Below are positions 12,759 to 29,900 of a stretch of 64,000 nucleotides of DNA, in pieces. This stretch comes from Vicinamibacterales bacterium. GTDB taxonomy: Bacteria; Acidobacteriota; Vicinamibacteria; Vicinamibacterales; UBA8438. Each line of letters begins with the position of its first letter. Within the stretch, counting starts at the first letter, position 1. The stretch spans positions 2,690,701 to 2,754,700 of the forward strand of contig CBDEVO010000003.1 of NCBI GenBank assembly GCA_965243615.1, read 5' to 3'. The position numbers were made by a program, and so were the translations under genes. The notes beneath the pieces are model-generated. The model was not told the origin of the DNA. It did not search any database and saw only the letters and a list, made by a program, of their open reading frames with translations.

Positions 12759-13093
12759 GGGTCACCTCCAGCAGACTTGCCATTCCGTGAACGTCACTCA
12801 GGTAGAGTGTCAACCCTAGAGACGTAACGACGTGTCCAGCGGTTCCGTGGAGACTCGGGCCTCCGTTTCCGGCCCGTCCTCCGGCGCGGCGGTCACGTTG
12901 CGGCAGGTCTTCCTGCAAGGATAATGGCCCGGTCGCCTGACGTCCGGTACCCGTATATTCGACCCTGATTGAGCAACGGTCGCCCTCCCCGATGCAGGCT
13001 GTCGGACGTATGCGTGTATGTACCGAAATGGATCAAGACCACGAGGTTCCAGTAAAGTGCATGTTCGTCTTGGGAGGCGGTATACTTTCCGAT

Positions 13094-14116
13094 ATGACCA
13101 CCATCGACTTCGCGGAGGCGGTCCGGCGGCGGCTCGCGGAGAGAGGACAATCCCGGTACCGGGCCGCCGTCAACAGCGGCCTGCCGCAAGACGCGATCCG
13201 GTCGGTCCTGAACGGGCACGTCCCCCGCCTGAACCGCGCCGAGCAGATCTGCCGAGCCCTCGGCATGGAGCTCTACATCGGTCCGTCGCGGGATGTTCAG
13301 GTCGAGGCCGATGGCGGAGAACCGTCCCGCCCGCTGACTCGCTTCGACCCGAGCGTCCAACTGCCGGTGCGGGTGTTGTCGCAGCCGTCGCCGGGGGTCC
13401 ACCTGACGGAGAGCGAAGAGGCCGATCGGACGAGGCCGGCGCCGGTGGATCTGGACGACCCCCAGGCGTTCTACGTGAGCTGCCACGGCGACTCGATGGT
13501 CCCGGCCGGCATCCGGTCGGCGGACTTCTGCCTCGTCTCTCCGTGCGCGAAGCTCGAACCCGGTCAGCGGATCTGGCTGCGGGACCGGCAGGGGCGCGAA
13601 GGACTGCGGTGGCTGATCAGGCTGACGGCGGCCACCTACGAGGTGGCCCCCTGGGAAACGCCCAAGCCGAACGGCCACCAGGATCTGGTCCCCGAGCGGT
13701 GGGAGCGCAAGAACGTCGACGACCGCGGCGTCGTCCTGGCGGTGTACCGCGGTTGGCTCGTTCCGTCGGACCCGGTGTACCGGCTTCCCGACTGGCGCCC
13801 CGGCCCGCTCACCGGTTTGTGGCGGGCGCTGCTCGACGAGGAGCCGGACCTCCAGGCCGCGGTGGCCGAGCATCTCGAAGAAACGACCTCCTCCTTCAAC
13901 CGGCGGATCACGGGCTGGCTCAAGCACGGTTCGGTCCGGCGCTCCGACATGCAGGATCTCCTGCAGCAGGTCGAGGACGTGAAGCAGTTGGCGCAGTTGC
14001 TGTCCCGGCAATCGGCGGCGTCCCGCAACGAGTCCGGAGCGCGTGGCGAAGAAGCTGACCGGCCCGCCGACGGGCGCGGGGGCGAGGGAGCAGTGACGGA
14101 TCCCGCCCTCGCGTGA
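13094..14116 (+). CDS. CI/LexA-like repressor: XRE HTH + S24 peptidase domain + ~110-aa C-terminal extension
   Basis: HTH: AEAVRRRLAERGQSRYRAAVNSGLPQDAIRSVLNG. S24 core: FYVSCHGDSMVPAGI..GQRIWLRDRQG..RGVVLAVY. Extra helical, acidic tail after residue ~235. Confidence 0.8.
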   Translation: MTTIDFAEAVRRRLAERGQSRYRAAVNSGLPQDAIRSVLNGHVPRLNRAEQICRALGMELYIGPSRDVQVEADGGEPSRPLTRFDPSVQLPVRVLSQPSPGVHLTESEEADRTRPAPVDLDDPQAFYVSCHGDSMVPAGIRSADFCLVSPCAKLEPGQRIWLRDRQGREGLRWLIRLTAATYEVAPWETPKPNGHQDLVPERWERKNVDDRGVVLAVYRGWLVPSDPVYRLPDWRPGPLTGLWRALLDEEPDLQAAVAEHLEETTSSFNRRITGWLKHGSVRRSDMQDLLQQVEDVKQLAQLLSRQSAASRNESGARGEEADRPADGRGGEGAVTDPALA

Positions 14117-14262: not shown

Positions 14263-14793
14263 TCATTCATCGGGCGGCTCCTGCGCATTGACGCGGTCGA
14301 GCATCGCGCCGATCACGGAGGTCGCCTTCGCCTTGCCGAGCTTCTCCAGCGCGGGCTCGTCGGGGTCGACGCCGAACTCCCGCGCGAACTGCGGATGCTC
14401 CTCGACCAGCTTGGCCAACAGCTTCTTCTGCCGGGCGGTGATCGGAGCCGGCCGCGCGGCTGCCGTCTCGGCCTTGTCTGCGTCGTTGGGGTCGGCGGAC
14501 GGCTCGGCATCGAGACCGAAGAGGGCGCGGTCGTCGGGCCGCTTCAGGGCCCGGATCTGCTCGTCCAGCCAGCCGAGGCTGATGTCGGTCCGCGACGTCT
14601 GCGCCGCCCGGACGATGGCCCCGACGATGATCTTGCGCCGGGTCTCCCGCCTGCGCTCGGTCTTCGCCTCGTCCGTCTGGAGCCGGCGCAGTCGATCCGC
14701 GAGGAGCCTGTCGGCGTCCCTCGTTTTGGCCGCCAACTCCTGCCGCCGCTCCTTGAGCTTCACGATCCGGGTAGCACGTCTTGACGTCTGCAT
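14263..14793 (-). CDS. Relaxosome accessory protein (MobC-position; DTRRKI-type motif as in small TraD/MobC proteins)
   Basis: ..KTERRRETRRKIIVGAIV.. motif. Transcribed divergently from the relaxase across the oriT region. Confidence 0.65.
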   Translation of the reverse strand: MQTSRRATRIVKLKERRQELAAKTRDADRLLADRLRRLQTDEAKTERRRETRRKIIVGAIVRAAQTSRTDISLGWLDEQIRALKRPDDRALFGLDAEPSADPNDADKAETAAARPAPITARQKKLLAKLVEEHPQFAREFGVDPDEPALEKLGKAKATSVIGAMLDRVNAQEPPDE

Positions 14794-14979: not shown

Positions 14980-17900
14980 ATGTATTGCCACGTCAACGTG
15001 AGCACGGGCAGCCGCGGCACGGGCCAGTCGGCGGCGGCGAAGTACGACTACATCAGCCGCGAGGGCAAGTACGAGGCGGCCTGTCAGGACGAGGTGGTGC
15101 ACCTCGAGTCGGGCTGCATGCCGTCGTTCGCGTCGTCGGACGCGCGGCTGTACTGGGCGGCGGCCGACGTGCACGAGCGGAGCAACGGGCGGCTGTTCCG
15201 CTCGCTGACGGCGGCGCTGCCCAACTCGCTGGACTCTGCCGATCGGCTCGAACTGGCGCGGAGCTTCGCGGCGCACGTGACGGGGGGCGAGCTGCCGTAC
15301 ACGCTGGCGGTGCACGCCGGCGACTCGAAGAAGGCGGGGGTGGCGGACAACCCGCACCTGCACCTGGTGTTCTCGGAGCGGGTGAACGACGGGGTGGAGC
15401 GCGGGGCGGAGCAGTGGTTCCGGCGGGCGGCGCCGAAGAAGGGCGATCCGGCGTCGGGGGGCGCGAGGAAGACGGAGCGGACGAAGCCGCGGGCGTGGCT
15501 GGAGGAGACGCGACAGGCGTGGGCGGGGGAGATGAACCTGGCGTTCGAGCGGGCCGGCGTGGACGACCGGGTGACGTCGGAGAGCCACGCCACGCAACTG
15601 GCGCGGGCGCGCGCGGCCGGCGACGCGGCGGAGGAGGTGCGTCTTCTGCTGAACCCGCCGTCGTTGCACATCGGCCCGCCGGCGAAGCACAGCTGGGAGG
15701 ACCGGCCGGGGAGGGCGCAGGAGCTGAAGCCGGATCGGTATGCGGCGGCCGAGGCGGCGGCGGCTTCCGCCGAGGAGGTCCGTTCGGCGCACGCGCCGGA
15801 CGTGGCGGAAGTGGCCGAGGCGAGGTCGCGGGTCGCGGTGCTCGACGCGCGTATCGCGGCGCTGGAGGCGGAGGCGGCGACCGGCGAACGGCGGGCCGGG
15901 CTGGCCGCCCGCGAGGAGTCGGTGCGGGCGACGTCGGCGGGCGGGCAGTGGCTGGACGAGGCGCACCGGTCGGTTCTCGCCCGCGCCGGCGGCCGCCTGA
16001 CGCCGGGCGAGAGGGAACGCGCCGTGGAGACGGTGGAAGGCCGTCTCCGCGCGGACCTCGCCGCCCGCGAGGAGTCGCTCATGGCGACGTCGACCGGTTC
16101 GACGTTGCTGAGGGAGGAGTACGGGGAGGCCGTCGCTTTGGCGGCGGCGGCGCAGAGCTTCGCGAAGCGGGAATCCGTTCTGGAACGGGTCGCGCAACGG
16201 GTCGGCGAGGAGCTGTCGGCTCGCGAGGAAGCGCTCCGGTCGATCCCGCTGGGCCGGCAGCATCTGTCGGCGGCGGAACAAGCTCGGGCCGTCGGGCCAG
16301 CGGGGCCGCCACTGGCCGAGCGCGAGTCGGTGGTCCGAGCGGCGGAGCAGCGGGTGGGGGAAGAGCTCGACCGACGCGAGGAACGGGTCCTCGCGGCCAC
16401 GGGCGACGACCGGCTGCTGGCCGGGGCGGCCGAAGAGCTGACGGAGCGCGGAGCGGTCTCGGGCGACGGCGGCTTCGCGGAGCGGGCGCTGATCATCGAC
16501 CGGGCGGAGGACCTGCTCGAGGCGGAGCGCGCCGAGTTCGGGCTCAAGGAAGCGGATCTGCGGAAGGACGCGGCCGGCGAGGAGTTTCTCCGCGACGCCC
16601 GGGGCGATGTCCTCGGCGCCGCCGACCGGGAGCCGGATACGCTCGCCGACGACCGGGCCGTCATCGACCGGGCGGCCGCGGCGAAGGCCCGCGTCGAGGC
16701 GCTCGGCATCGGGGGCATGGACCTGTACCACGCCCACCTGGCGGACATCGATCCGAAGTGGGGCGTGGACGGGAACGCCGCGACGACGCGCGCGAACCAG
16801 GATGCGGCGCTGAGCGCGGCGGAGTCGGACGTCGCGCGCCTCGGGCGCCTTCGCGCCGTGCTGTCGGACGAGGCCGCCGCCGCCCGCTACCGCGAGGTCC
16901 TCGGCGACAGTCCGGGGCGGTTCGACACGGCGGTCCTCGACAAGGCCCTCGCGGCGGGCGAGCGGGAGCGGGAGGAACGCGCGGCGACGGCGTGGGCCGG
17001 GCTGGCCGCCCGCGAGGAGTCGGTGCGGGCGACCTCGGCGGGCGGGCAGTGGCTGGACGAGGCGCACCAGTCGGTCCTTGCCGACGCCAGCGGCCGTCTG
17101 GCGCTGGGCGAGAGGGAACGCGCCGTGGAGACGGTGGAAGGCCGTCTCCGCGTGGACCTCGCCGCCCGCGAGGCGTCGCTCATGGCGACGTCGACCGGCT
17201 CGACGTTGCTGAGGGAGGAGTACGGGGAGGGCGTCGCCGCGGCGGCGGCGCAGAGCTTCGCGGAGCGGGAATCCGTTCTGGACCGGGTCGCGCAACGGGT
17301 CGACGAGGAGCTGGGGGCTCGCGAGGAAGCGCTCCGGTCGATCCCGCCGGGCCGGCGGCATCTGTCGGCGGCGGAGCAGGCTCGGGCCGGCGGTGCTGCG
17401 GCGGCGCCGCCGACCCCGGCCGAGCGCGAGTCGATGGTCCGCGCGGCGGAGCAGCGGGTGAGGGAGGATCTCGACCGGCGCGAGGAACGGGTCCTCGCGG
17501 CCACGGGCGACGACCGGCTGCTGGCCGAGGCGGCCGAAGAGCTGGCGGAGCGCGGCGCGGTCTTCGGCGACGGCGGCATCGAGGAGCAGGCGCTGATCAT
17601 CGACCGGGCGGAGGACCTGCTCGAGGGGGAGCGCGCCGGGCTCGAGCTCGAGGAAGGCAAGCTGTTGAAGGCCGCCGCCGGCGAGGAGCTTCTCCGCAAC
17701 GCCCGGCGCGACGTCCTCGGCGACGACGACCGGGATGCGGAGACGCTCGTCGACGGCTGGGCCGTCATCGACCAGGCGTCCGCGGCGAAGGCCCGCGTCG
17801 AGGCGCTCGGCACCGGGGGCCTGGACCTGTACCACGCCCACCTGGCGGACATCGATCCGAAGTGGGGCGTGGACGGGAACGCCACGACGACGCGCGGGAA

Positions 17901-19659
17901 CCAGGATGCGGCGCTGAGCGCGGCGGAGTCCGACGGCTCGCGCCTCGGGCGTCTTCGCGCCGTGCGGTCGGACGAGGCCGCCGCCGCCCGCTACCGCGAG
18001 GTTCTCGGCGACAGTCCGGACCGGTTCGACACGGCGGACCTCGACAGGGCTCTCGCGGCGGGCGAGCGGGAGCGGGAGGAACGCGCGGCGGCGGCGCGCC
18101 GTGCGGCGGACCTCGAGACGGCCACGGAGAAGGCCCGGGCCGCGGCGGCGCGGTCGAAGGTCGACTTGCGCCCCGCCGCTGTCCGTGCGGTCTACGAAAC
18201 CGGCGAGACGCACGCGGCCGGTCTCGCGGCCGTGGAGCGCACGACCGAGGCCCTCGACGCTGCGGCCGACCAGGGTCTCCCGACCGGCACGGTCATGGAC
18301 GCCTGGACCGCGAACCGTTCGGCACCCGGCGGGATAGCGGCGGCCCTTGCCGCCGCCACCGCCGCCGCCCGCCTCGAGGAGGAGCGCGCCGAGGCGCGGC
18401 GCAAGCAGGCGGCCATCGAGAAGCGCAACTCTCGCGTGAAGCAGCTGTTGGCCGACCCCGCGTCGGCCGACGCACTCATTGAGGCCCTCGAAGCGGAGGA
18501 CCCGTCGTGGCGGTCAGGGACCCGCCCGGCCTGCATCGACCGGGCGCTCGACGTCGCCGAGCGGGACGCCGGCCGCCGGGAGGTCGCCACTCGGCGACAC
18601 CGGGAACACGAGGTGGTCCTGGAGGCGGAACAGCGCTTCCCCGACGCCACCAGCACGGCGTGCCAATTCGCGGGTGGCCGTTTCGACGGGACCACGGAGG
18701 TCGGCCGTGCGGGCCGGCGCGTCTCGCAGGATCTCTCGGACCGCGCCCTCGTGAGAGCGCACGCGGCCGAGAAGGCCGAGGCGCCGGCGCCTCGCAACTT
18801 CGTTCAGCGGCTCTACGACTGGCTGCGGGATCGGCTCGAGCGGCTGTTCGGCCGTTCGCCCGGCCCGCCCGCGGAGGCCGCCACCCTCGGGCCGGAGGCC
18901 TCCGCGGAGCGCTCGGCCGAAGCGGGCCGGCCTCGACCCGCCGCCTTCGAGGAGCGGTACTGCCGGGAGTGGCCCGAGCACGCGGCCGACATCGACTGTC
19001 CGGACTTCGAGAAGCTGGCCGCGGGCGCGTCAGGCGCCAACCGGCTCTTCGAGCGGGAGGAGCCCCGCTCGTCAAGATGGATCACGGTCGAACCGGGCGA
19101 GTTGCCGGCCGCTCTCGCCAAGCCCGCGCCGGCTTGGAGCGACAAGGCCGTCGAGGAGGTGACCCGGCGGGCTACAGTCTGGGACCCGGACCGGACCGAG
19201 GGCCGGCGGGTCGCCGAGGCGCACCTGGGCGGCTACGAGAGCCGGTTGCCGGCGGAGTACTCGCACTCGGCGGAATGGCAGGCGATCCTGAAGCGTGCGG
19301 AGGAGGCCGTCCGGAAGGCCCAGAACAGCTGGCGGTACAAGTGGGCCGACCGCCGAAAGGACGACCGGAAGAAGCGGGAGCTCGAGGCGACCGCTATCAA
19401 CCGCGCCTGCGGCCGCGATGCGCGCCGCCTGCACGGGAAGATGATGGCGGGGCGTGAGGCCGCGCGGCCCGGCTGGGAGGTCACGGTCAGGATCCGGGCC
19501 GTTCAGGAGCTCATCCGGGACGAAGAGGCGACCCGTTTCAGACAAGAGCGGGAGCAGGCGCGGGAACGGGAACAGGCGCAAGAGCGGGAGCGCCCCGCCG
19601 ACAGGCCGCCGCCCGAGCAGAAGCGGCCGAGAGGCCGGGGACATGTTCTAGATCGATGA
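14980..19659 (+). CDS. mobA: MobA/MobL-family (MOBQ) relaxase, 1559 aa, with repeat-rich Ala/Glu/Arg C-terminal region
   Basis: N-terminal relaxase motifs: AAAKYDYISREGKY (catalytic Tyr region) and LAVHAGDSKKAGVADNPHLHLVFSER (HxDx..NPHxH). No primase or helicase motifs recognised downstream. Confidence 0.9.
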   Translation: MYCHVNVSTGSRGTGQSAAAKYDYISREGKYEAACQDEVVHLESGCMPSFASSDARLYWAAADVHERSNGRLFRSLTAALPNSLDSADRLELARSFAAHVTGGELPYTLAVHAGDSKKAGVADNPHLHLVFSERVNDGVERGAEQWFRRAAPKKGDPASGGARKTERTKPRAWLEETRQAWAGEMNLAFERAGVDDRVTSESHATQLARARAAGDAAEEVRLLLNPPSLHIGPPAKHSWEDRPGRAQELKPDRYAAAEAAAASAEEVRSAHAPDVAEVAEARSRVAVLDARIAALEAEAATGERRAGLAAREESVRATSAGGQWLDEAHRSVLARAGGRLTPGERERAVETVEGRLRADLAAREESLMATSTGSTLLREEYGEAVALAAAAQSFAKRESVLERVAQRVGEELSAREEALRSIPLGRQHLSAAEQARAVGPAGPPLAERESVVRAAEQRVGEELDRREERVLAATGDDRLLAGAAEELTERGAVSGDGGFAERALIIDRAEDLLEAERAEFGLKEADLRKDAAGEEFLRDARGDVLGAADREPDTLADDRAVIDRAAAAKARVEALGIGGMDLYHAHLADIDPKWGVDGNAATTRANQDAALSAAESDVARLGRLRAVLSDEAAAARYREVLGDSPGRFDTAVLDKALAAGEREREERAATAWAGLAAREESVRATSAGGQWLDEAHQSVLADASGRLALGERERAVETVEGRLRVDLAAREASLMATSTGSTLLREEYGEGVAAAAAQSFAERESVLDRVAQRVDEELGAREEALRSIPPGRRHLSAAEQARAGGAAAAPPTPAERESMVRAAEQRVREDLDRREERVLAATGDDRLLAEAAEELAERGAVFGDGGIEEQALIIDRAEDLLEGERAGLELEEGKLLKAAAGEELLRNARRDVLGDDDRDAETLVDGWAVIDQASAAKARVEALGTGGLDLYHAHLADIDPKWGVDGNATTTRGNQDAALSAAESDGSRLGRLRAVRSDEAAAARYREVLGDSPDRFDTADLDRALAAGEREREERAAAARRAADLETATEKARAAAARSKVDLRPAAVRAVYETGETHAAGLAAVERTTEALDAAADQGLPTGTVMDAWTANRSAPGGIAAALAAATAAARLEEERAEARRKQAAIEKRNSRVKQLLADPASADALIEALEAEDPSWRSGTRPACIDRALDVAERDAGRREVATRRHREHEVVLEAEQRFPDATSTACQFAGGRFDGTTEVGRAGRRVSQDLSDRALVRAHAAEKAEAPAPRNFVQRLYDWLRDRLERLFGRSPGPPAEAATLGPEASAERSAEAGRPRPAAFEERYCREWPEHAADIDCPDFEKLAAGASGANRLFEREEPRSSRWITVEPGELPAALAKPAPAWSDKAVEEVTRRATVWDPDRTEGRRVAEAHLGGYESRLPAEYSHSAEWQAILKRAEEAVRKAQNSWRYKWADRRKDDRKKRELEATAINRACGRDARRLHGKMMAGREAARPGWEVTVRIRAVQELIRDEEATRFRQEREQAREREQAQERERPADRPPPEQKRPRGRGHVLDR
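15898..18093 (+). repeat. In-frame tandem duplication, 2 x ~1.1 kb (367 codons) inside the relaxase gene
   Basis: Unit 1 starts at 15898 and unit 2 at 16999 (period 1101 nt). Both begin GLAAREESVRATSAGGQWLDEAH and end ..AAGEREREERAA. The copies are diverged, with a few indels. Confidence 0.9.
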
Positions 19660-19841
19660 GCCCGCTTCGCGGAAGCAGCGCTCGCTAGGGCCCGGCAGGA
19701 GACGCCGTGCGCCACCAGCGCGAGGAGAGCGAGGACTGCCCGGTCGAGCTGAGGCCGTCGGAAGACCTTCAGTGACGAGTAAATCCTAACAGCCTGCCGG
19801 CAGGAGGGCCTTGGCGCGGTCGATATAGAGTCGAGCGGGGG

Positions 19842-19879
19842 TGACGACACGCTCTTCGTGCTCGACGGCGTGCCGTACC
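19842..19879 (+). repeat. 38-bp direct repeat, copy A
   Basis: TGACGACACGCTCTTCGTGCTCGACGGCGTGCCGTACC; 36/38 identical to 22188-22225. Confidence 0.8.
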
Positions 19880-20079
19880 TTCGCGCCGCTGGCCGCCGAC
19901 GGTCAGCGTCAACCTCGCCGTCGTAGCCGCCCCCGAGGCCGCGTGCGCCAGCGTCGCCTTGTCCTCCGCCGTGTCGTCGTCCTCGCTCGCCGTCACCCGT
20001 CCGGGCGTGCTCCCATTGCCCCTTACCAGCCCGGGCTTTTCGTCGGGTTTCTGGCCGGGCCACGTGATAGGCTGAAGGC

Positions 20080-20361
20080 ATGGAGGCTCTCACGCCGTGG
20101 TTGACGCCCGTCCTTCTGGTCGGGCTCTTCGTGTGGCTGCGGCGCGAACTGAACGGTCGCCTTGACAGATCAGAGAAGCGGCTCACCGACCGCATGGAGA
20201 AGATCGAGAAGCAGGTCGGCGAGCTGGCCAAGGACATGAACCAGCGGTTCGACCAGGTCAACCGCGAGCTGGCCGATCTGCGCGAGCGGATGGCGAAGCT
20301 CGAGGGCTCGCTCGAAGGGTTCCTCGCCGGCCGCCGCGACCGCGACGTCGCCCGACGATGA
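20080..20361 (+). CDS. Small membrane-anchored coiled-coil protein
   Basis: N-terminal TM WLTPVLLVGLFVWL, then heptad-like RLTDRMEKIEKQVGELAKDMNQRFDQVNRELADLRERMAKLEG. High GC3. Confidence 0.55.
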   Translation: MEALTPWLTPVLLVGLFVWLRRELNGRLDRSEKRLTDRMEKIEKQVGELAKDMNQRFDQVNRELADLRERMAKLEGSLEGFLAGRRDRDVARR

Positions 20362-20372
20362 GGATACAAACC

Positions 20373-21296
20373 ATGGAGAGCAACCCGACTCAGAGGACCG
20401 TGTTCATCACGGGTACGAACTCGGGCTTCGGCAAGGCCACCGTCGAACTGTTTGCGGCGAACGGTTGGAGGGTCGCCGCGACGGTGCGGAACAAGGATCG
20501 GCACGCGGACCTGTTCACGGAACTCGCGGGCGTCAAGCTGTACGAACTGGATGTGGACGACTTCACCCGGGTAGAGCAGGTCGCAGGCGAGGTCGTCAAC
20601 GACTTTGGTCGCGTCGACGTGGTGGTCAACAACGCCGGCTACTGCCTGATGGGGCCGACAGAGACCAGCACCATGGAACAGATCCGGAAGCAGTTCCAGA
20701 CCAACACTTTAGGCGTATTCGCCGTGACCAAGGCGTTCCTGCCCCACATGCGCGAGGCGGGCGGCGGGACCATCATCAACATCGCATCCGCGAGCGCTGT
20801 GTTCAACTACCCCTTCATCGCCGCCTACGGCGCAAGCAAGTGGGCGGTCCGCGGTCTGACCGAGAGCCTGGCCGTCGAGCTCGCCCCGTTCAACATCCGC
20901 GTCAAGGGGATCTACCCGGGATTCCACGCGACCGGGATCTTCACCAAGCTCGATCAGGGGACCGCGGATGAAGGCCCCGAGTACCGACTCTACAAGCCTT
21001 ACTACGCCAATTTCCTCTCGGCACAGAAGGCCCTGCCCAGTGCGGGAAGCCCGGACAGAATCGCCCGGACGATTTATCGCGCGGCGACGAACCCGGCCGG
21101 AAGGCCGCACATCGTGTCCGGGGCGGACGCTAAGCTGCTGGCGTTCATCAAGCGCGTGCTGCCACAGCGGGCGTTCCTGCGCTTCCAGACGCGCTCGATT
21201 CTGTCGCCTATCTCGAAAACGCAGGCGGCATTCATGAGGTTCACCTTCGGCAAGAACCAGCAACCGTTGCGCATGGACCTGCCCGAAGACTTGTGA
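20373..21296 (+). CDS. Short-chain dehydrogenase/reductase (SDR) family oxidoreductase
   Basis: TGTNSGFGKA (TGxxxGxG), NNAG, and S..YGASKWAV (YxxxK). Confidence 0.9.
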   Translation: MESNPTQRTVFITGTNSGFGKATVELFAANGWRVAATVRNKDRHADLFTELAGVKLYELDVDDFTRVEQVAGEVVNDFGRVDVVVNNAGYCLMGPTETSTMEQIRKQFQTNTLGVFAVTKAFLPHMREAGGGTIINIASASAVFNYPFIAAYGASKWAVRGLTESLAVELAPFNIRVKGIYPGFHATGIFTKLDQGTADEGPEYRLYKPYYANFLSAQKALPSAGSPDRIARTIYRAATNPAGRPHIVSGADAKLLAFIKRVLPQRAFLRFQTRSILSPISKTQAAFMRFTFGKNQQPLRMDLPEDL

Positions 21297-21575
21297 TTAA
21301 CCGCGCCCGGGGCTCCGGGGACGGGGTGGGTCGCGCGGGCGAGCGGCTGCACGCCCGTCCCCGGGTCGTCTGCGGAAGGGGGCGAGATCCTACGTCAAGC
21401 GGGGGTGCTACATCAGCGAGCAGTACGGTTGGCTATTCGAGCCTGCGCGCCTCGAGTACGACGGCGGGCGGCTCGTCATCCTCAAGACCACCGCCGACGG
21501 TACGGCCGAGAGCTGGACGGAGGTAGGGGGACCCGGCGCTGATCGCTCCGGACGATCATCGACAGAGGAGGCGAC

Positions 21576-22190
21576 ATGAGCGAAGCAGTCACCGTGACTC
21601 TGGGACGCGACCCGGCCCAGCGACGGCGGGCGACCTACCAGGATGTGCTCGATGCCCCCGCCCATCGGGTCGCCGAGGTCGTTGACGGCGTGCTCCACAC
21701 GAATCCGCGGCCGGCCATGCCGCATTCTTTGGCGAGTTCCCGACTGGGCGGCGAACTCACGGGACCATTCGATCGGGGTCGCGGCGGCCCCGGCGGATGG
21801 TGGATCATCTTCGAGCCCGAGCTGCACTTGGGCGAGGATATCCTCGTGCCCGACCTCGCCGGTTGGCGGCGGGAGCGGATGCCTGTCTTTCCCGATGCGC
21901 CGTACGCCACGCTGGGCCCCGACTGGGTGTGCGAAGTGCTCTCGCCGTCGACCCGCAAGCTGGACCTCCACGGCAAGCGCGACGTCTATGGGCGTGAACA
22001 GGTGGGTCATCTCTGGCTCGTCGACCCCGCCGACCGCACCCTGGAGGCCTTCGAACTGCGCGAGGGCGAATGGGTGCTGATCGCCACCGCGCAGGATGAC
22101 GCCCCCGTCAGCATCCGCCCCTTCGACGCCGTCACCTTCAGCCTCGGCGATCTCTGGCCGCCGAATGTCGCCCCGGCCGAGGGGGGCTGA
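21576..22190 (+). CDS. Uma2-family (DUF820) putative endonuclease
   Basis: GAGGAGG Shine-Dalgarno. VPDLAGWRRERMP, PDWVCEVLSPSTRKLDLHGKRDVYGREQVGHLWLVDP. Confidence 0.85.
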   Translation: MSEAVTVTLGRDPAQRRRATYQDVLDAPAHRVAEVVDGVLHTNPRPAMPHSLASSRLGGELTGPFDRGRGGPGGWWIIFEPELHLGEDILVPDLAGWRRERMPVFPDAPYATLGPDWVCEVLSPSTRKLDLHGKRDVYGREQVGHLWLVDPADRTLEAFELREGEWVLIATAQDDAPVSIRPFDAVTFSLGDLWPPNVAPAEGG

Positions 22191-22225
22191 CGACACGATC
22201 TTCGTGCTCGACGGCGTGCTGTACC
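22188..22225 (+). repeat. 38-bp direct repeat, copy B (overlaps the Uma2 stop codon)
   Basis: TGACGACACGATCTTCGTGCTCGACGGCGTGCTGTACC. Confidence 0.8.
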
Positions 22226-22241
22226 ATAGAAACGAGGACGG

Positions 22242-22769
22242 TCAGTTCGGAAAACCCCGCGTCAGAAGTCCATCGAGCGCCAGCTTGAACCACGCAGTGT
22301 ATCCCGTCGGACGCTCCGCGAACTCCCTTTGAATCGTGGGCACGGTCGCCCACTTCCATTCCTCCACTTCTTGGTCGTCCGGTGCCGGAACACCACAGAA
22401 CCGCCCAATCAGCACGTGATCGAACTCATGCTCCACGAGTCCGCCGTCCGTTGCTGCCCGGTACACGAAGCCGAACACGACCCGCAGCGGGCAGTTGAAC
22501 CCCATTTCCTCCTTCAACCGGCGCTCAGCAGCCCCAATCAGGGACTCTCCCGCCCTCGGATGGCCGCAACAGGTGTTGGACCAGAGACCGCCCGAGTGGT
22601 ACTTGCCGGCCGCGCGCTTCTGCAACAGCAGGCGGTCGGTTTCGTCGAAGACGAAGATCGAGAACGCCCGGTGCAGGATTCCGTTCCGGTGAGCCGCCAT
22701 CTTCTCCACGACTCCCGTTTGCCGGTCGTCGCCGTCGACGGCAATCAGGAGCGTATCGGAATCCTGCAT
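22242..22769 (-). CDS. idi: Isopentenyl-diphosphate delta-isomerase, type 1 (Nudix)
   Basis: HRAFSIFVFDETDRLLLQKRAAGKYHSGGLWSNTCCGHP..AAERRLKEEMG..LVEHEFDHV. The catalytic Cys and Glu contexts are present. Confidence 0.9.
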   Translation of the reverse strand: MQDSDTLLIAVDGDDRQTGVVEKMAAHRNGILHRAFSIFVFDETDRLLLQKRAAGKYHSGGLWSNTCCGHPRAGESLIGAAERRLKEEMGFNCPLRVVFGFVYRAATDGGLVEHEFDHVLIGRFCGVPAPDDQEVEEWKWATVPTIQREFAERPTGYTAWFKLALDGLLTRGFPN

Positions 22770-22848
22770 GGGTGTTCACCTCTTAACCGCGGCATCGACG
22801 GAATCGTCGACTGGATGTTTGCCGCCGGGAAGTCGTCGGCCCGCCGGG

Positions 22849-24117
22849 TCACCATTCTCGCGAATCTTCCTCGAACACCGAGGTCGGCAGGCTGTAGGAA
22901 TGCTCGTACTCGCCGAGATTCGAGACTTCGAGCATGCTCCTGAACCGCGACCTCGACCGATACGCGGCCAGCGGCGGCGCGAGCCTCCGCAGCATCCTGT
23001 CGCCGAAATTGCGCAGCCGCAGCAGCGGAAGCTCCTTCTTCAGTCTTCCGGCGGGGAACCTCAGCTCGTCGGCCAGCCCGTCCCCGATCATTTCCCGCGA
23101 CACCTGGTACATGTACTTCGCCATGGCGCGCCGCGCCTTGGGTTCGGTGAACCCCAGAACGATCGGCGCGCTGTTGACGATGCTGTTCGCCATGATGATC
23201 GCGTCCTCGTCGGGCCGCGGCTCGCACAGCGCTCCAATCTCGAACCACCTGACCGACGAGGCGTAGTCCCGGAACAGGATCTCGTCGGGTATCCCCATGA
23301 GGCGGCCGGTGTACCGCCAGACGTGCACGTACCCCTCGCGTTCCCGGTCGCTGAAATCTCCGCCGAGGTTCGATACATGCTGCAGCAGCCTCCCCGAGAA
23401 GGCGGCGGCGCCGAGCAGCATGTGCGCCGCGCTGAGGGGGACCCCGTATACCGACCGGTCCCATTCGTCGGAAGTCGAGACCAGCCGCCTCGCCTGCGCG
23501 TGCACGAGCCGGATCCTGAGGCTCAGCTTCCACCCGTCGCCGCCCGGCTCGATGCCTCCGGGCAGGTACTGTTCCAGGAGCTGCAGCAGGTTCTGCTTGA
23601 GCCGCCGCACGCCGTTCGTCATGATGCGGCTGCGAATGCGGAACGACTTGCTGATGAGCGTGGAGAAGCCCTCGATGATGGCGCCGCCCACCAGGGCGCC
23701 CATCACCATCTCGGAGTTGCGAAGGAAGGCCCGGGTCGCGTCGCGGGCGAGATCGCGGTCGAACCAGTCGGGCACGACGCCCGAGTCAGCAATCAGGTCA
23801 CGCAGCGACTTGGGCGTGTCGGCCGGCAGATCGCTGAAGCTGTCGAGCGTCCTCGCGATGATTCCGTGCACGTCCGCCGGCGACGCGTTCGCCGCCAGCT
23901 CGGCGACCACCGCGTCGGCCACCGGGTCCCCCAGGGTCGTGTGGCGGATGTACCTCTCGGCCAGCACGGGGTCGACCTTGCGGGCGGTTTCGTAACCGGC
24001 GACGTAGGCGGTCGGGATGTTCATCATGCCGGAGAAACGCTCGGTGAGGGGGGGTGCGCAACGAGGAGCGGAACCGCCTGCGTCGGGTGAACGCGGCGGC
24101 GCGGTCATCGCCGTCAC
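22849..24117 (-). CDS. MpaB/Lcp-family oxygenase (DUF2236)
   Basis: ..WKLSLRIRLVHAQARRLV..GVPLSAAHMLLGAAAF..YVHVWRYTGRLMGIPDE. A GTG start at 24117 overlaps the upstream P450 stop (GTGA). Alternative ATG starts at 24108 and 24027. Confidence 0.7.
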   Translation of the reverse strand: MTAMTAPPRSPDAGGSAPRCAPPLTERFSGMMNIPTAYVAGYETARKVDPVLAERYIRHTTLGDPVADAVVAELAANASPADVHGIIARTLDSFSDLPADTPKSLRDLIADSGVVPDWFDRDLARDATRAFLRNSEMVMGALVGGAIIEGFSTLISKSFRIRSRIMTNGVRRLKQNLLQLLEQYLPGGIEPGGDGWKLSLRIRLVHAQARRLVSTSDEWDRSVYGVPLSAAHMLLGAAAFSGRLLQHVSNLGGDFSDREREGYVHVWRYTGRLMGIPDEILFRDYASSVRWFEIGALCEPRPDEDAIIMANSIVNSAPIVLGFTEPKARRAMAKYMYQVSREMIGDGLADELRFPAGRLKKELPLLRLRNFGDRMLRRLAPPLAAYRSRSRFRSMLEVSNLGEYEHSYSLPTSVFEEDSREW

Positions 24118-25514
24118 CTCGCGCGCTCCCGGATGGTCACTCGAAAGCCGAGGACGCCTACCCCGATGTTCTCGCGTTTCGGCGGGCGGCTCGACGCCGG
24201 CTCGATCCGCAGGCGCTGGGTCATGGTCGCCAGCGCCAGGACGAACAGCATCGCCGCCAGATCCGCGCCGGCGCAGGTGTGCGGGCCGCTCCCGAAAGGG
24301 ATGTACGCCTGTTCGTGTCGGACCGGTCCGTCACGCCGCGAGTCCTCCAGCCAGCGTTCCGGCCTGAACTCGCCGGCCCGCGTCCAACCGTCGGCGCGGT
24401 GGTGGAGCACACGCATGCCGACGTACACCAGCGTTCCCTTCGGAACCGGATAGCCGCCCAGCACGCAGTCTTCCTCCGCCCGCCTGGCCCGCATGACATA
24501 GGGCGGCGGCTCCAGACGCAACGTCTCCTTGAACACCGCCTGCACGTACTCGAGCCTCTGCAAGTCGCCCGGCTCCACCGGCCGGTCCCCCAGCACGTCC
24601 GAGACCTCTCTCTCCACCCGATCCCGGATGGCCGGATCGCGTGCGACGTGGTGCAGCGCGAAGCACAACGCGGCCGTCGGCGCATCCGTGAACGCGCACA
24701 GGAAGGCGATGATCTCGTCGCGCAGCGCCCGGGGGCTCGGGTACGACCACCCGCACAGACCCCGGCGCGCGGCCCGGACGAGGTGTGAAACCAGATCGCG
24801 GCCCTCGTGGGCGGGGTCGCCGGCGCGTTCGATGGCGCCGTATATCGCCGCGTCCAGCGCCGCGGTATCGGGCGCCCGCCCCATCTTCTTGATGGACTGG
24901 CCGAACGGCAGGAGATCCAGAAGCATCGCGGCTTTCAACAGCCTGCAGATCCGCAACCCCTGATCGCGGTCCGCGTCGCGGCCGAGGACGGCCTCCGCCA
25001 GGGCGTCCCACACGTAGCGCTCCACCTCCGGCCGCAGATCCAGCGCCCGCCCCGGCGCCAGCCTCTCTCGGAGCCTCAGGGCGTGCCGGCCGATGACCTC
25101 CGCGTAGCCGGGAAGGCGGTCCTTCGTGAACGCCGTGGCCATGAGCTCGGCGCGCCGGCGGTGCTCCTCGCCGTCGTGCACGGGCAGGCAGCCGTGCTCC
25201 ATCAGCGGGTTCGGCTCCCGGCCGCCGGGCGCCCAGGGCGGAAAGGACTCCGCCCGCGTGACGAGGACCTCCCGGACGAGGTCGGCGTTGAAGACCGCGC
25301 AACACCTCAGGGAAGGAAGACTGAAGAACACGATGTCTCCATGGTCCCGGTAGAGCCGCTCCATGAACTCCGGAAAGCCGGTGAGCCGCTCGACGTAGTT
25401 GCGCAGCCGCCGGCCCCGCGGTCCCGGGGGACGGGCCGGCTTGTCGTCGGCGGAACGCTGCCCGGCCATGTCCTCCGAGCTGGGAGCCGGCTCTTCTTTG
25501 GCGGAACGCTGCAT
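24114..25514 (-). CDS. Cytochrome P450 (paralog A)
   Basis: Heme loop FGSGPHTCAGADLA, ExxR region ETLRLEPP, N-terminal PPGPRGRR. Confidence 0.9.
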   Translation of the reverse strand: MQRSAKEEPAPSSEDMAGQRSADDKPARPPGPRGRRLRNYVERLTGFPEFMERLYRDHGDIVFFSLPSLRCCAVFNADLVREVLVTRAESFPPWAPGGREPNPLMEHGCLPVHDGEEHRRRAELMATAFTKDRLPGYAEVIGRHALRLRERLAPGRALDLRPEVERYVWDALAEAVLGRDADRDQGLRICRLLKAAMLLDLLPFGQSIKKMGRAPDTAALDAAIYGAIERAGDPAHEGRDLVSHLVRAARRGLCGWSYPSPRALRDEIIAFLCAFTDAPTAALCFALHHVARDPAIRDRVEREVSDVLGDRPVEPGDLQRLEYVQAVFKETLRLEPPPYVMRARRAEEDCVLGGYPVPKGTLVYVGMRVLHHRADGWTRAGEFRPERWLEDSRRDGPVRHEQAYIPFGSGPHTCAGADLAAMLFVLALATMTQRLRIEPASSRPPKRENIGVGVLGFRVTIRERAR

Positions 25515-25533
25515 CGCGATGTCCTTCTTCGAA

Positions 25534-26907
25534 TCAGCTGCCGGGCTCCCGTCGCTCGACGCGCGCCCGTATCGGCCCCTTCACCCCCAGCCCGAGCAGC
25601 TCGGCCCGGAACGGCGTGGGTGATTCGAGGGTCAGACGCATGCCCTGCGCGCAGCCCGCGAGGGTCAGCACGACGAGCACGGTGGCGAACTCCCAGCCGA
25701 GGCAGCTGTGGGGCCCGATGAAGAACGGCGTGCAGGCATGGTCGGGACGGGAACCCCCCGAGCCGTCCATCCAGCGCTCCGGGCGGAACTCCGCCGGCCG
25801 CTCCCAGACCGCGGGGTCCCGGTGCGATTCGCCGAGGCACGGTTGCGCAATCGTGCCCCTGGGAATCCGGTAGCCGCCGACGACGCAGTCCTCCGACGCC
25901 TGCCGCCAGTGCGACGTGCCGGCGTAGGAAGGTGGTCTCAGCCGGAAGCTCTCGCTGGCGACGGCCCGTGCGTACGGAAGGCGGTCGAAGTCGGCCCCGG
26001 CGACCGGGCGGTCACCGAGCACGTCGTCGACCTCCCGCTCCAGCCGCTCGCGAACTTGGGGATTCCGATCGAGCAGCTCGAGGCTCCACACCAGCCCCAT
26101 CATCGGCGAGTCGATGGAGCCGAGCACGATCATGTAGATCTCGTCCCGCAGCTCCCGGTCGCCGGCGGCGAACGGGCAACCGTCCTGCGCGTCGGCGGTG
26201 CGGACGACGTGGGAGACCATGTCCTCGCCGCCGTGCGAAGGGTCGCGGGCCTTCCGCATGGCGGCGTACACGGCGTCGTCCATGCGCTCGATGGCGCGCC
26301 GGGCGCGCCGGTTCGCGGGCAGGGGCAGGCGCTTCAGCGCGCCGGACGCCGGGAGGTAGCTCAGCGCCCAGTCGCGCTTTATCGCCGCGCCGGCATCCCA
26401 CGCCACTTCCGGCGGAACCCGCGGCTCGCGGCCGAGGAGGGCGTCGAGCAGAGCGCCGCACGCGAGGCGGCCGGTCTCGGCCTTGTAGTCGATGGTCTGC
26501 CCCGCCCCCCAGCGCTCCTTCATCTCGTGGATGTTGTCGGCGATGAGGTCGGCGTAGCGGCGCATGCGGCGCTCGACGAACGCGCCCCCGAACACCTCGC
26601 GCACGCGTTGGTGGTGCTCGCCGTGGTCGCGCGGCATGCAGGGCGTCGCGATGACCCCGAAGCCCGCGGGATCGTTGAACGCCGGGAACATGTCGGCCTT
26701 CTCGACGAGGACCTCGCGGATCAGGTCCGCGTCGAACAGGGCGCAGAAGTCCAGGCCCGGAATCCGGTAGTGGACGATCCTTCCGTATTCCTCGTGAAGC
26801 CGCCTCATCATGCCGCGAAAATCGCGCGAGCGCTCGATCAGGTTGCGTATCCGCCGTCCCTTCGGACCGGGAGGCAGTCGCCGATTGCCGTTGTCGGAGC
26901 CCTGCAT
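25534..26907 (-). CDS. Cytochrome P450 (paralog B)
   Basis: Heme loop FFIGPHSCLGWEFA, ESFRLRPP, N-terminal PPGPKGRR. Start at MQGSDNG. The ORF-track entry 25534-29115 is an artefactual 5' extension. Confidence 0.9.
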   Translation of the reverse strand: MQGSDNGNRRLPPGPKGRRIRNLIERSRDFRGMMRRLHEEYGRIVHYRIPGLDFCALFDADLIREVLVEKADMFPAFNDPAGFGVIATPCMPRDHGEHHQRVREVFGGAFVERRMRRYADLIADNIHEMKERWGAGQTIDYKAETGRLACGALLDALLGREPRVPPEVAWDAGAAIKRDWALSYLPASGALKRLPLPANRRARRAIERMDDAVYAAMRKARDPSHGGEDMVSHVVRTADAQDGCPFAAGDRELRDEIYMIVLGSIDSPMMGLVWSLELLDRNPQVRERLEREVDDVLGDRPVAGADFDRLPYARAVASESFRLRPPSYAGTSHWRQASEDCVVGGYRIPRGTIAQPCLGESHRDPAVWERPAEFRPERWMDGSGGSRPDHACTPFFIGPHSCLGWEFATVLVVLTLAGCAQGMRLTLESPTPFRAELLGLGVKGPIRARVERREPGS

Positions 26908-26993
26908 CGATCGCCGTTCCTTTCCTGTTTCCCTTCCCGCACTCCGCGCCCGCCGCCCGCGTCGCAACGCGCCGCGCCCGTCCGCGCGCCGTG

Positions 26994-29900
26994 TCAGCCG
27001 ACCGGCGCCGGCCGTGCCGTTGCAGCCGGCCCGCTCATGGCCGTTCGGGGCATCGTGACGCCGAAGTACACGGTGGCCAGGGCCGGCACGACCAGCATCA
27101 GGATCGCCGTCGCGAACAGCAGCCCGAAGCCGAGCGAGACGCCGAGCGGGCTGAGGAACTGCGCCTGAATGCTCCGCTCGAAGATCAACGGTGCGAAGCC
27201 CAGGAACGTCGTCAACGACGTCAGCATGATGGGGCGGAAGCGCCGCTTCGCGCCGTCGATGACCGCGGTCCTCACGGGCGCCCCGAGCCTGAGCCGCTCG
27301 CAGATGAAGTCGATCATCACGAGAGAGTCGTTGACGACGACGCCGGTGAGTCCGATGACGCCCCACATGGACGTGGCGCTCAGACCGATGCCCATGATGA
27401 GGTGGCCGAGGACGGCCCCCACGATGCCGAACGGTATGGCCGCCATCACGAGCAGCGGCATGGTGTATGAACCGAACGGAATGGCGAGCAGCGCATAGAT
27501 CGCCAGCAGGGCGAGAAGCAGACCGCGGGTCAGCCCCTCGAACGACTCGGCCTGCTGCTGTTGCTGGCCGCCCACCGCATACGTCAGACCCGGATAGGCG
27601 CTCTCGAGCTCGGGCAGCGCCGTGGCCGTCAGCACCGCGGTCGCTTCGCCGCCGGTGATGACGCCGTCGTCGACGTCCGCCGTGACGGTGACGATGCGGC
27701 GGCCGGCCTTGCGCCGGATCGACGACGGCGATTCCCCCAGGCTCACGGTGGCGACCCGGCTCAGGGGCACGTCGGCGCCGCCGGGCGTGCGGATGAGGTA
27801 GTCCTCGACGTCGGCTATCGTGTCGCGGTCCTCGGGCGGCAGCCGCACGTAGACGCGGACATCCTCCCGCCCGCGTTGCACGCGCAGGGCCTCTTCGCCG
27901 AAGAACGCCGCGCGCACCTGGCGGGCCAGCGCGTCGAGCGTCAGTCCGAGGGTCCGCGCCGCGGGCCGCAGCTCGATCTGCAGCTCCTGCACGCCCGACG
28001 CGTGGTCGGAGCGCACGTCGAAGACCCCCTCGATCCCGCGCAGGCTGTCGACGACCGACTCGGCGATCGGACCGAGGCGGTCCGGCTCCGGGTGCGCCAG
28101 CTCGACCTGCACCGGGACGCCGAGGTCGAGCAGGTCGGCGCCGAAGGTCAGGCTGCGCGCGTCGGGAGCTGGGCCCGCCTGCCGCCGCCAGGCCTGCGCG
28201 AACGTCTCCGCGGCGATGTCCCGGACCTCGGCGGCAGGCAGCCTGAACTCCACGGCGGCGACGTTGGCCCGGGGATTCAGGTCGGGCGTCTGCTCGATGG
28301 AGCCTCCCAGGGTTCGCGCCCTCGCGCCGACCGTCAGGTTCACACCGGTCAGCAGATCGGGCGCGCCGTCGGGGCGACCGCGCGACAGGTCGTCGATGGC
28401 CCGTCGCCCGGCCGCTTCCAGCTCGCGCGCCAGCTCGGCCGTTCGGTGCGCGGGAGTGCCTTCCGGCATCACCAGGCTGGCCGTGACGATGTCCGATTCG
28501 ACGTCCTCGATGAAGATGACGGGGACCGTTCCCGATCCGACCAAGCCGATGCACAGGATGACGGCGGCCACGCCGCCCGCGACCACGACGGCCGGCTCGC
28601 CGGTGGCCAGCCGCAACCCCCGGTCGAGCGGCCCTTCGATGAACCACCGCAACCCGCCGTCCACGCGGCCCTGGATCCGCGAGAAGAAGCGCTCGACCGG
28701 GTTGGCCGGCGGCAGCGCCGGGTCCGGCAAGTGGGACAGGTGGTGCGGCAGCACCAAGAGGGATTCGACCAGCGAGACCAGCAGCACCCCGATCAGGATG
28801 ATCGAGAGCGGGCGCATCATGGCGCCGATGGGGCCGGGGACGAGCAGGAGCGGCGCGAAGGCGCCGACGGTGGTGAGGACCGCGAAGACCACCGGGCGCC
28901 CGACCCGTTGAGCGCCCCGAATCGCCGCCGCGAGGGGTGGCGTCCCCCTTCGCCGCTCGGCATGCACGTTCTCGGCGACGACGATGGCGTCGTCGACCAC
29001 GATGCCGACCGCGAGAATGAAGGCGAAGAGGGAGATGGTGTTGATGGAGACGTCGAACGCCAGCGCCACCGCGAGGGCGCCGACGAAGGAGATGCCGATG
29101 CCCGCCGCGACCCACGCCGCCAGGCGGATCTGGAGAAACATGGCCAGCGCCGCGAGGACGAGCAGCAGGCCCAGCGCGCCGTTCTCCCGCAGCAGGTCCA
29201 GGCGGCTCTCGTACACTTCCGCGTCGTTGTTCCAGATCTCGACGGCCACGCCGGCGGGCAGCGACGGGACGACCTGCCGCGCCAGATGGTCTTCGACGGC
29301 GGCCACGACCTCCATGACCTGCTCGCCGGAGGACCGGTACACCTCGACGAACGCCGCCGGCCGTCCGTTGTAGCGGACGATCAGGTCGGTGTCGGCGAAG
29401 CCGTCGCGCACCGTCGCCACGTCGCCGAGGCGGACGGCGGTCCCGTCGGCCCTGCTCAGGACGACGATCTCCTCGAAGTCGTGCTGGTGGTAGCGCCGGC
29501 CGGTGGTGCGGACGCGCACCTGCGCGTCGCGCGTCTCCAGGCGGCCGGCCGACAGGTCGAGCGAGCCCGCGCGGACCGCGTCGGAGATGTCGGCATGCGT
29601 CAGCCCCAGCGCGCGCAGCCGGTGCAGCGGTACCTCGACGGAGACTTCATAGGCGCGCACCCCGCTCGTCTCCACCTGGGAGACCCCCGGAAGCGCGGCG
29701 AGGCCGTCCTCGATGCGGTACGCCAGCTCCTTGAGCGCGCGTTCCCCGACGTCGCCGTACACCACCAGGCGAAGGACGCTCTGGCGGTTGGTCATCTCGC
29801 GAATCCGCGGGCGTTCGGCCCGGGCCGGCAGCGTCCGAATCCGGCCGACGGCGGCCTCGACCTCGTCGAGGGCGCGGCCCGCACCGGCGCCGGCCGCGAG

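Follow-up and report, generated by a model that had tools for sequence, protein, structure and literature searches.

A genuine in-frame duplication of a hairpin-repeat array within a MOBQ-type relaxase of Vicinamibacterales

The 64,000-nucleotide stretch of DNA analyzed here (termed the window; positions 2,690,701 to 2,754,700 of contig CBDEVO010000003.1, assembly GCA_965243615.1, from a Vicinamibacterales bacterium of the Acidobacteriota) encodes a mobilization relaxase of 1559 amino acids whose central part consists of two diverged in-frame copies of a 1.1-kb segment. This duplication is genuine and inherited and does not result from an assembly artefact. The explanation that we favor, with a probability of about 0.6, is that an array of helical hairpins was duplicated, likely in a single event, that it has been recombined since and that it acts as an acidic, non-catalytic scaffold or spacer within the relaxase.

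The G+C content at codon positions 1, 2 and 3 of the relaxase open reading frame (ORF) is 0.79, 0.55 and 0.91, which identifies 14980-19659 on the forward strand as the coding frame. Direct repeats with a spacing of 1098-1104 nt and 88-93% identity were found within it, 15893-16599 being paired with 16994-17703. When aligned by blastn, unit 1 and unit 2 were 91.5% identical over 1106 columns (E = 0), and the protein alignment of residues 307-673 with residues 674-1040 comprised 365 aligned codons with 83% amino acid and 91.7% nucleotide identity. The two units differ at 92 aligned sites and by three indels, all of which are whole codons. A preliminary description of this DNA, made from the sequence alone, had placed two diverged in-frame copies at 15898-18093; these coordinates are off by no more than a few codons, a tandem repeat having in any case no fixed phase, and every motif that it quoted is present in both copies. 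Analysis of the junction indicated that the duplicated DNA corresponds to approximately 15893-16993, followed by its copy at 16994-18097. Since the left-flank motif 'AAxGERRA' occurs again at the junction, the recombination joint may be located as much as about 10 codons upstream of this position. Two long ORFs in other frames overlap the gene (14797-18213 on the reverse strand, 1138 aa, and 14943-18482 on the forward strand, 1179 aa); they are spurious, owing to the high G+C content of the repeat, and automatic gene callers might be misled by them.

In order to place this gene among its relatives, we used a search of 5.8 billion protein clusters, which returned 124 relatives; the 120 that were listed were scored with a hidden Markov model (HMM) of the unit and for copy number, some of these entries being gene fragments. 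Short-read assembly can go wrong at tandem repeats of about 1 kb, and a single unit might have been expanded to two in this way. This explanation is exceedingly improbable: the copies differ at the sites and in-frame indels given above, two full units were detected by the unit HMM in 39 of the 120 homologues, which come from many independent assemblies, and the contig from which the protein originates spans 6.6 Mb, on which three further paralogues are found. Furthermore, the relaxase of a syntenic locus in another Vicinamibacterales metagenome-assembled genome (L010, 97-98% identical to window positions 5197-25902) also carries two units, 97.5% (unit 1) and 95.6% (unit 2) identical to those of the window. 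The preliminary description had considered the duplication to be old rather than artefactual and had named a single copy in long reads, or identity of the units at the nucleotide level, as findings that would speak against it; since the copies are diverged and the two-unit structure recurs in independent assemblies, that view holds as far as the assemblies show. At position 10546 or thereabouts in L010 (corresponding to window 15525), codon 182 has four G residues in place of five, and this loss splits the ORF into a 184-aa part and the 1373-aa protein P0020; the frameshift could be real or could stem from a homopolymer error of long-read sequencing.

The 367-residue segment, initially described as a module, is a real repeat unit but is itself composed of smaller repeats. 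Self-comparison of the unit gave best off-diagonal offsets of 51, 52, 103 and 104. The best 25-residue window scored 70 at offset 51, as compared to 34.6 +/- 4.5 in composition-preserving shuffles (z 7.9, reached in 0/500), and the mean similarity at offset 51/52 had a z of 4.5 (reached in 0/1000 shuffles). Autocorrelation over residues 286-1060 peaked at 51-52, 103, 315, 367 and 418-419. Unit 1 was modeled with AlphaFold2 (AF2) on the basis of 19 unit sequences sharing 50-86% identity with it; the model was entirely helical with a mean predicted local distance difference test (pLDDT) of 89.8 and a predicted template modeling score (pTM) of 0.71. Its long helices, of 20-30 residues, begin at positions 36, 88, 139, 193, 249, 298 and 344, with a short helix after each of them. 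According to this model, one unit is predicted to consist of seven hairpins of about 52 residues, each made of a long and a short helix, and the protein would thus contain a hierarchical array of about 14 hairpins. The first four or so are alike in sequence ('ERExV..RV..RL...L..REE.L.ATS.G..LL'), and the last 100 or so residues of the unit form a C-module that is better conserved and constitutes its most widely retained part. Glycines in the turns and leucines and valines in the core are invariant across units. The composition (21% alanine, about 12.5% each of glutamate and arginine) and the all-alpha model agree with the Ala/Glu/Arg-rich, helical unit that had been surmised.

A long Ala-rich helix leads into the array, its C-terminal half being the first half of hairpin 1; the match to the sub-repeat HMM begins at residue 302. 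An AF2 model of both units together (residues 231-1180, made with close homologues only) reached a pLDDT of 66.5 and a pTM of 0.26, with helix extending on both sides of the units. The net charge of the two units is about -49 over 734 residues, as compared to -1 for the relaxase domain and +4 for the C-terminal region. Direct DNA binding by the array was considered and rejected, as the array is strongly negative. The unit profile had 0 matches when searched by sequence against PDB, only sub-threshold matches in Pfam (DUF6507 and HTH_74) and no match in PHROGs. Searching the unit model with Foldseek against PDB and BFVD gave nothing significant (best E 0.2, TM <= 0.23), the matches being generic helical proteins such as PRC1, spectrin, EzrA, 14-3-3 and tape-measure proteins.

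The array follows an N-terminal relaxase domain. Residues 3-193 matched 2NS6 ('Mobilization protein A', the relaxase domain of RSF1010/R1162 MobA) with an E of 3e-57 when compared to PDB using phmmer, making it the closest solved relative, and more weakly the staphylococcal NES relaxase 4HT4 (E 3.5e-5); Pfam MobA_MobL (PF03389) matched residues 47-207 with 51.3 bits for a cut-off of 26.7. In the 2NS6 alignment, the tyrosine motif AKYDYISREGKY stands opposite AKADYIQREGKY, and the catalytic tyrosine is assigned within it as in MobA. The NPHxH metal motif is likewise aligned, DNPHLHLVFSER standing opposite ENPHCHLMISER and NPHLHLV opposite NPHCHLM. The NCBIfam MobQ equivalog NF041496 scored 52.9 bits, under its cut-off of 200. 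The domain is of MOBQ type but is no equivalog of the curated MobQ model. The MobA of RSF1010 and the IncQ plasmids carries a C-terminally fused RepB-type primase. As the preliminary description had proposed, no primase or helicase was detected past residue 210 or so by Pfam, NCBIfam, PHROGs or PDB sequence searches, nor was any other domain, and the same sequence searches gave no match for the C-terminal 519 residues.

A MOBQ-type origin of transfer (oriT) is located directly upstream. Its nick region AAACCGGTAAGTGCGCCCTTCG, 55-76 nt ahead of the relaxase start codon, partly coincides with the 3' arm of a 9-bp inverted repeat (14920-14928 / 14932-14940). The MOBQ oriT consensus has been given as NWACCNNTAAGTGCGCCCTYNN (PMC3832669), and AAACCGGTAAGTGCGCCCTTCG agrees with every one of its specified positions. 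A search with 51 nt of the oriT region matched 167 plasmids, 156 of which are predicted to be mobilizable; in the best match, an IncQ1/MOBQ plasmid, the matched stretch lies between mobB and a divergent mobilization gene. On the other side of the oriT, the window encodes a divergent 176-aa ORF, in the position that MobC has in IncQ plasmids. An ORF of 175 or 177 aa occupies the equivalent position in loci L015 and L016, and the 176-aa ORF has a pN/pS of 0.21 when compared to L010. That the repeat domain is located in a genuine MOBQ mobilization module is firmly supported. The occurrence of a proteobacterial IncQ-type oriT in a chromosome of Acidobacteriota is notable by itself.

We then scored arrays and C-modules separately over the same homologues. 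The number of arrays per protein ranges from 0 to 2. Two arrays with two C-modules were found in 45 proteins, one array with one C-module in 21, one array with two C-modules in 18 and a C-module without any array in 4, and the combinations 1 + 3, 1 + 4 and 2 + 3 (arrays + C-modules) were represented by a few proteins each. The duplicated region had been presented as unusual; it indeed has no known relative, but two units are the commonest full-length architecture of the family and not a peculiarity of this gene. Single-copy versions, which the preliminary description had suggested looking for in homologous relaxases, do exist. Clean single-unit alleles are P0039 (locus L016) and P0049, both of 1188 aa, for an expected length of 1559 - 367 = 1192; locus L012 also has a single unit. 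Other alleles are shortened: P0021, P0022 and P0024 are without about 53 residues of unit 2, or approximately one sub-repeat, and P0031, P0040, P0041, P0043, P0045 and P0050 without about 155 residues, or approximately three. At the short end of the range, L006-L008 and P0082/P0083 (868/870 aa) have a single C-module (approximately 265-368 of the unit HMM) between the relaxase domain and the C-terminal region, and in distant relatives the C-module is present up to 3-4 times. That recombination actively alters the copy number and the composition of the array is firmly supported. Separately, L013 and L014 retain just the first 64 or so relaxase codons, and L009 matches the window gene over the first 950 nt or so only (14970-15930) and has a 427-aa ORF; these copies are truncated or remodeled, which suggests ongoing decay of some elements.

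The history of the units was examined in a neighbor-joining tree, which had the topology ((A_u1,A_u2),(B_u1,B_u2)), with single-unit alleles nested within the two-unit clades and a few units (P0012_u2, P0019_u1 and P0026_u1) at the 'wrong' position. The junction position is identical in both clades: the variants EREREERAATAWAGLAAREES, EREREELEAAGERRARLAAREES and EREREERAAGERLAAREES all reproduce the left-flank 'AAxGERRA(G/R)L', and the window joint 'AATAWAG' can be derived from the left-flank 'AATGERRAG' by a net 6-nt deletion. Within one genome, unit 1 of L001 is 95.5% identical to unit 2 of L003, as compared to 91-92% for other first units. Moreover, states at the 92 sites that differ between unit 1 and unit 2 are clustered in several units (runs-test z -2.6 to -3.35), and just 1 site is diagnostic for unit 1 as opposed to unit 2 when units are defined by BLAST, which indicates mosaicism.

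These data may be read in two ways. Two or more independent duplications, one in clade A and one in clade B, would account for the fact that unit 1 and unit 2 group together within each clade instead of pairing with their counterparts in the other, and the hairpin periodicity would guide such independent events to equivalent positions. On the other hand, all junction variants can be read as one and the same joint, and out-of-register exchange and mosaic tracts are directly visible, showing that homogenization is occurring. Since the shared junction argues for one ancestral duplication followed by homogenization, we consider independent duplications possible but rather doubtful, and the sequence comparisons favor a single old duplication with later gene conversion.

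When 1.84 billion representative proteins were scanned in full with HMMER, the module was found in only 134 clusters, of which 119 had an E <= 1e-10; many of the 134 matched it in 2-8 separate stretches. In 72,556 plasmids, neither the whole gene (megablast) nor a single unit (tblastn) had a match, and the module was thus not found in PLSDB. All full-length members with a recognizable N-terminus are relaxases, and these belong to two Pfam families: PF03389 (P0001, P0082, P0085, P0130, P0141, P0169, P0170 and P0208) and PF03432, the VirD2/MobA-like 'Relaxase' family (P0065, P0069, P0076, P0081 and P0121). Two more, P0078 (L017, with a weak PF03432 match) and P0066 (L018, with no Pfam match on record), are encoded directly behind a NikA-like/MobC gene. 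The presence of the module behind both types of N-terminus indicates that it has been shuffled between two relaxase families. A literature search revealed nothing specific on repeat-bearing MOBQ relaxases or on acidobacterial relaxases. We conclude that the block being a new, relaxase-specific and lineage-restricted helical repeat domain is firmly supported.

In order to evaluate constraint on the array, substitution ratios were calculated as Nei-Gojobori (NG86) omega or pN/pS. Omega was about 1.09 between unit 1 and unit 2 and 0.75-1.25 between orthologous units, as compared to 0.39-0.66 for the relaxase domain of orthologues. Between the window and L010 the ratio was 0.56-0.64 for all four relaxase regions, 0.17-0.34 for the neighboring MacB, repressor-like, 176-aa ORF and VWA/TPR genes and 0.61 for the neighboring sigma70 gene. 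A strong inflation of NG86 omega through the G+C content of 91% at third codon positions was considered and rejected: the low ratios of most neighbors in the same pair, with the exception of sigma70, argue against gross inflation and indicate that the whole relaxase is fast-evolving. In the P0052-59 group, identity to the window was 86% for the relaxase domain and 78-81% for the units and fell to 28-42% for the C-terminal region. An array that remains about 80% identical where the C-terminus has been swapped is constrained; on this comparison, the array belongs to the conserved core, the swappable part being the C-terminus. The duplication had been called tolerated, which understates the case, given this conservation and the reshuffling by recombination.

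It could be proposed instead that the array is a functionless, neutrally drifting linker in which expansions and contractions are tolerated and the duplication is without consequence. The ratios near 1 between units and around 1 between orthologous units, the many length variants, including the form with 0 arrays, and the biased Ala/Glu/Arg composition would all be expected of such a linker. We nevertheless regard it as unlikely, because, even with just 19 sequences, the AF2 prediction is a defined fold of high confidence, the glycines of the turns and the leucines of the core do not vary among units sharing 50-86% identity, array identity (0.78-0.81) is near that of the relaxase domain (0.86) and far from that of the C-terminal region (0.28-0.42), the module has been recruited by two relaxase families, and the raised omega covers the whole relaxase and not the array alone.

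Relaxases enter the recipient together with the DNA, and the array might therefore act in the recipient, or at the coupling protein, as an effector or adaptor. It could provide a DNA-mimic anti-restriction surface, a rod for self-association that brings two relaxase molecules together for termination, or a means of discrimination that keeps co-resident elements from cross-reacting. The net charge of the array, the up to five related copies per genome, the faster evolution of the relaxase as compared to most neighboring genes and the dimeric rods, such as PRC1, among the top (non-significant) fold matches are all compatible with this proposal. However, no similarity to known anti-restriction or DNA-mimic proteins was found in Pfam, PDB or PHROGs, and the exchange of units between paralogues argues against a role in telling elements apart; we therefore hold an effector or adaptor role to be quite improbable. 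Also conceivable, but in our opinion not likely, is a relaxase domain of selected, tunable length (0, 7 or 14 hairpins) that would serve as an acidic rod for pairing relaxase molecules or docking them on the coupling protein, or as a DNA-mimic surface preceding the transferred strand, and whose copy number would be reset continually by recombination between the sibling elements of one Acidobacteriota genome.

According to the explanation that we favor, a single duplication would have arisen by unequal recombination at homologous hairpin positions before the known two-unit lineages split. The units would later have been partially homogenized and reshuffled by gene conversion and by unequal crossover, both among units and among co-resident copies of the element, and such events would yield the alleles with 0, 1, 1 plus a partial and 2 units. 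The array would be a folded, acidic, non-catalytic scaffold or spacer in the relaxase core, tolerant of length changes by whole hairpins; its most probable roles would be to space the nicking domain from the C-terminal region or to present repeated surfaces for protein binding or self-association in the relaxosome. The relaxase would nick the adjacent MOBQ oriT and would presumably be exported by a type IV secretion system (T4SS) encoded elsewhere. We infer the scaffold or spacer role, the export through a T4SS in trans and the recombination mechanism from the observations above.

Several observations weigh against this explanation. The tree topology can also be obtained from two independent duplications. 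The high substitution ratios in the units and in the relaxase are compatible with weak constraint. Alleles with fewer hairpins retain intact reading frames, which indicates that length is not critical, and several copies are truncated or frameshifted. The pTM of the two-unit model is too low to demonstrate a rigid rod or a reliable geometry between the units, and no structural homologue pointing to a function was found (Foldseek E >= 0.2, TM <= 0.23). Finally, neither a T4SS nor a coupling-protein gene was detected in the 38 called window genes that were scanned or within 10 kb of the relatives examined.

Table 1. Coordinates of the relaxase gene, its parts and associated features in the window.
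Feature	Coordinates	Strand	Evidence or remark
Repressor-like gene, helix-turn-helix (HTH) with weak S24 peptidase match	12992..14116	+	Pfam S24 E 6e-4 (below curated cut-off); PHROG transcriptional repressor E 4.6e-8
Divergent 176-aa ORF beyond oriT	14263..14793	-	No family match
MOBQ-type oriT nick region AAACCGGTAAGTGCGCCCTTCG	14925->14904	-	Sequence, consensus match, inverted repeat
Relaxase ORF, 1559 aa	14980..19659	+	Codon-position GC and Pfam MobA_MobL
MobA (RSF1010/R1162)-type HUH relaxase domain, aa 3-193	14986..15558	+	phmmer vs PDB
Ala-rich helix of ~55 residues into array, aa ~252-306	15733..15897	+	Helix H22-76 of two-unit AF2 model, moderate confidence (pLDDT 60-82)
Repeat unit 1, aa 307-673, 7 predicted hairpins of ~52 aa, net charge -21	15898..16998	+	
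Three clearest 52-aa sub-repeats of unit 1 (aa 344-395, 396-447, 447-489)	16009..16446	+	Self-comparison and sub-repeat HMM
C-module of unit 1, aa ~571-673, 'LYHAHLADIDPKWG...RYREVLGDSP.RFDTA.LD.ALAAGERE'	16690..16998	+	Unit HMM
Unit 1/unit 2 joint 'EREREERAATAWA|GLAAREES'	16970..16998	+	Same joint position in both homologue clades
Repeat unit 2, aa 674-1040, 7 predicted hairpins of ~52 aa, net charge -28	16999..18099	+	
Matching three sub-repeats of unit 2 (aa 711-762, 762-813, 815-857)	17110..17550	+	Sub-repeat HMM
C-module of unit 2, aa ~938-1040	17791..18099	+	
C-terminal 519 aa, family-variable, Arg-rich tail at end	18100..19656	+	No recognizable domain
Cargo of ~13.8 kb: short-chain dehydrogenase/reductase, Uma2 endonuclease-like, MpaB/rubber-oxygenase-like, P450, three-gene resistance-nodulation-division efflux	19660..33510	.	
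Tyrosine integrase with arm-binding domain	52865..54007	-	Pfam Arm-DNA-bind_3, Phage_int_M, Phage_integrase

The relaxase belongs to a backbone of approximately 12986-19659, which comprises the repressor-like gene, the divergent 176-aa ORF, the oriT and the relaxase, and whose homology starts at approximately 12980-12996 in seven loci. In L001, L003, L004, L005, L011, L012 and L016, the relaxase is directly followed by the equivalent of window positions 33511-35159 or so, which encode an HTH_23 gene, indicating that the intervening 13.8 kb constitute a block of cargo in the window. As compared to L010, this cargo is nearly identical (pS about 0-0.004) and the backbone has a pS of 0.03-0.11. 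The integrase segment is homologous to a stretch downstream of the single-unit relaxase of L016, and the integrase is probably part of the same island. No att-like direct repeats of at least 11 nt were found between the left edge of the backbone and the end of the integrase, and, by comparison with other loci, the copy in the window has undergone rearrangement at its left edge. With its relaxase, oriT and tyrosine integrase, the locus would fit an integrative mobilizable element, but its ends were not found.

Five copies (L001, L002, L003, L010 and L012) are present in a single 7.0-Mb Vicinamibacterales genome, CBDBMZ010000003.1. A related copy, L005/L015, is found on OY760736.1, a record of 37,016 bp labelled 'chromosome: 3' that also carries integrase, ParA, toxin-antitoxin, Toprim and AAA_25 genes and that may be an extrachromosomal form. 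Elsewhere in the window, a group II intron reverse transcriptase/maturase ORF (RVT_1 and GIIM) is encoded at 3003-4343 on the reverse strand, and a DDE_Tnp_1 transposase of 614 aa at 40658-42502 on the forward strand, inside the putative island. ARAGORN reported an odd 91-nt 'tRNA-???' with a two-base anticodon at 44894-44984 on the reverse strand; the segment 44604-44931 adjacent to this call is 90% identical to one downstream of the L012 relaxase module and could be a remnant of an attachment site. Another segment of about 170-220 bp, at 46330-46548, recurs at 82-86% identity in L003, L007, L008, L011, L013 and L014 and may be a small repeat or the end of an element.

The arrangement resembles that of IncQ MobA (RSF1010/R1162) in its N-terminal HUH domain, in an oriT with an inverted repeat and in a small divergent gene across the oriT. 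It differs in that the place occupied by the primase in IncQ MobA is filled here by 2 x 367 aa of hairpins and 519 further residues (the IncQ1 plasmid matched by the oriT region is annotated with a 'DNA-primase RepB domain' gene), and in that the host belongs to the Acidobacteriota and the gene is chromosomal, in an integrase-bearing island. TraI of F/R1 (MOBF) is likewise a relaxase with a long C-terminal part that holds two copies of a large module, namely two RecD-like helicase domains with the translocation signals TSA and TSB. The TraI modules are however alpha/beta helicase folds that diverged anciently, whereas those described here are all-alpha, 83% identical, variable in copy number and without a helicase signature. 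NES of the staphylococcal plasmid pLW1043 shares the MobA/MobL-type N-terminal domain (4HT4, E 3.5e-5) and has a non-catalytic, largely helical C-terminal domain after it, but no sequence or fold similarity was detected between the C-terminal parts, and NES is not known to be built from tandem repeats. The rods of spectrin, PRC1 and EzrA, although similarly made of repeated antiparallel helices and among the top Foldseek matches, were matched only at E >= 0.2 and TM <= 0.19; spectrin-like rods consist of three-helix bundles of about 106 residues, in contrast to the period of about 52 residues with one long and one short helix seen here. Finally, a large in-frame repeat, whole-unit variation, mosaic tracts and out-of-register exchange are features shared with copy-variable repeat proteins such as bacterial surface proteins. 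Copy-variable tandem-repeat proteins are mostly secreted or exposed at the surface and under immune or phage pressure, whereas the protein studied here is a DNA-processing enzyme of a mobile element.

Relaxases gate conjugative DNA transfer. Much is understood about their catalytic domains, but little about most of their long non-catalytic regions. RSF1010-type relaxases and their oriT are known mainly from small broad-host-range proteobacterial plasmids. The locus described here places such a system in chromosomal islands of soil Acidobacteriota, with the primase replaced by a new repeat domain found only in relaxases. Should the array turn out to be mere tolerated filler, it would amount to a well-documented curiosity. 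The natural alleles with 0, 1, 1 plus a partial and 2 units form a ready deletion set with which spacing, self-association, recognition by the coupling protein and action in the recipient could be addressed, and the locus provides a clear case of concerted evolution and out-of-register exchange among sibling mobile elements in one genome.

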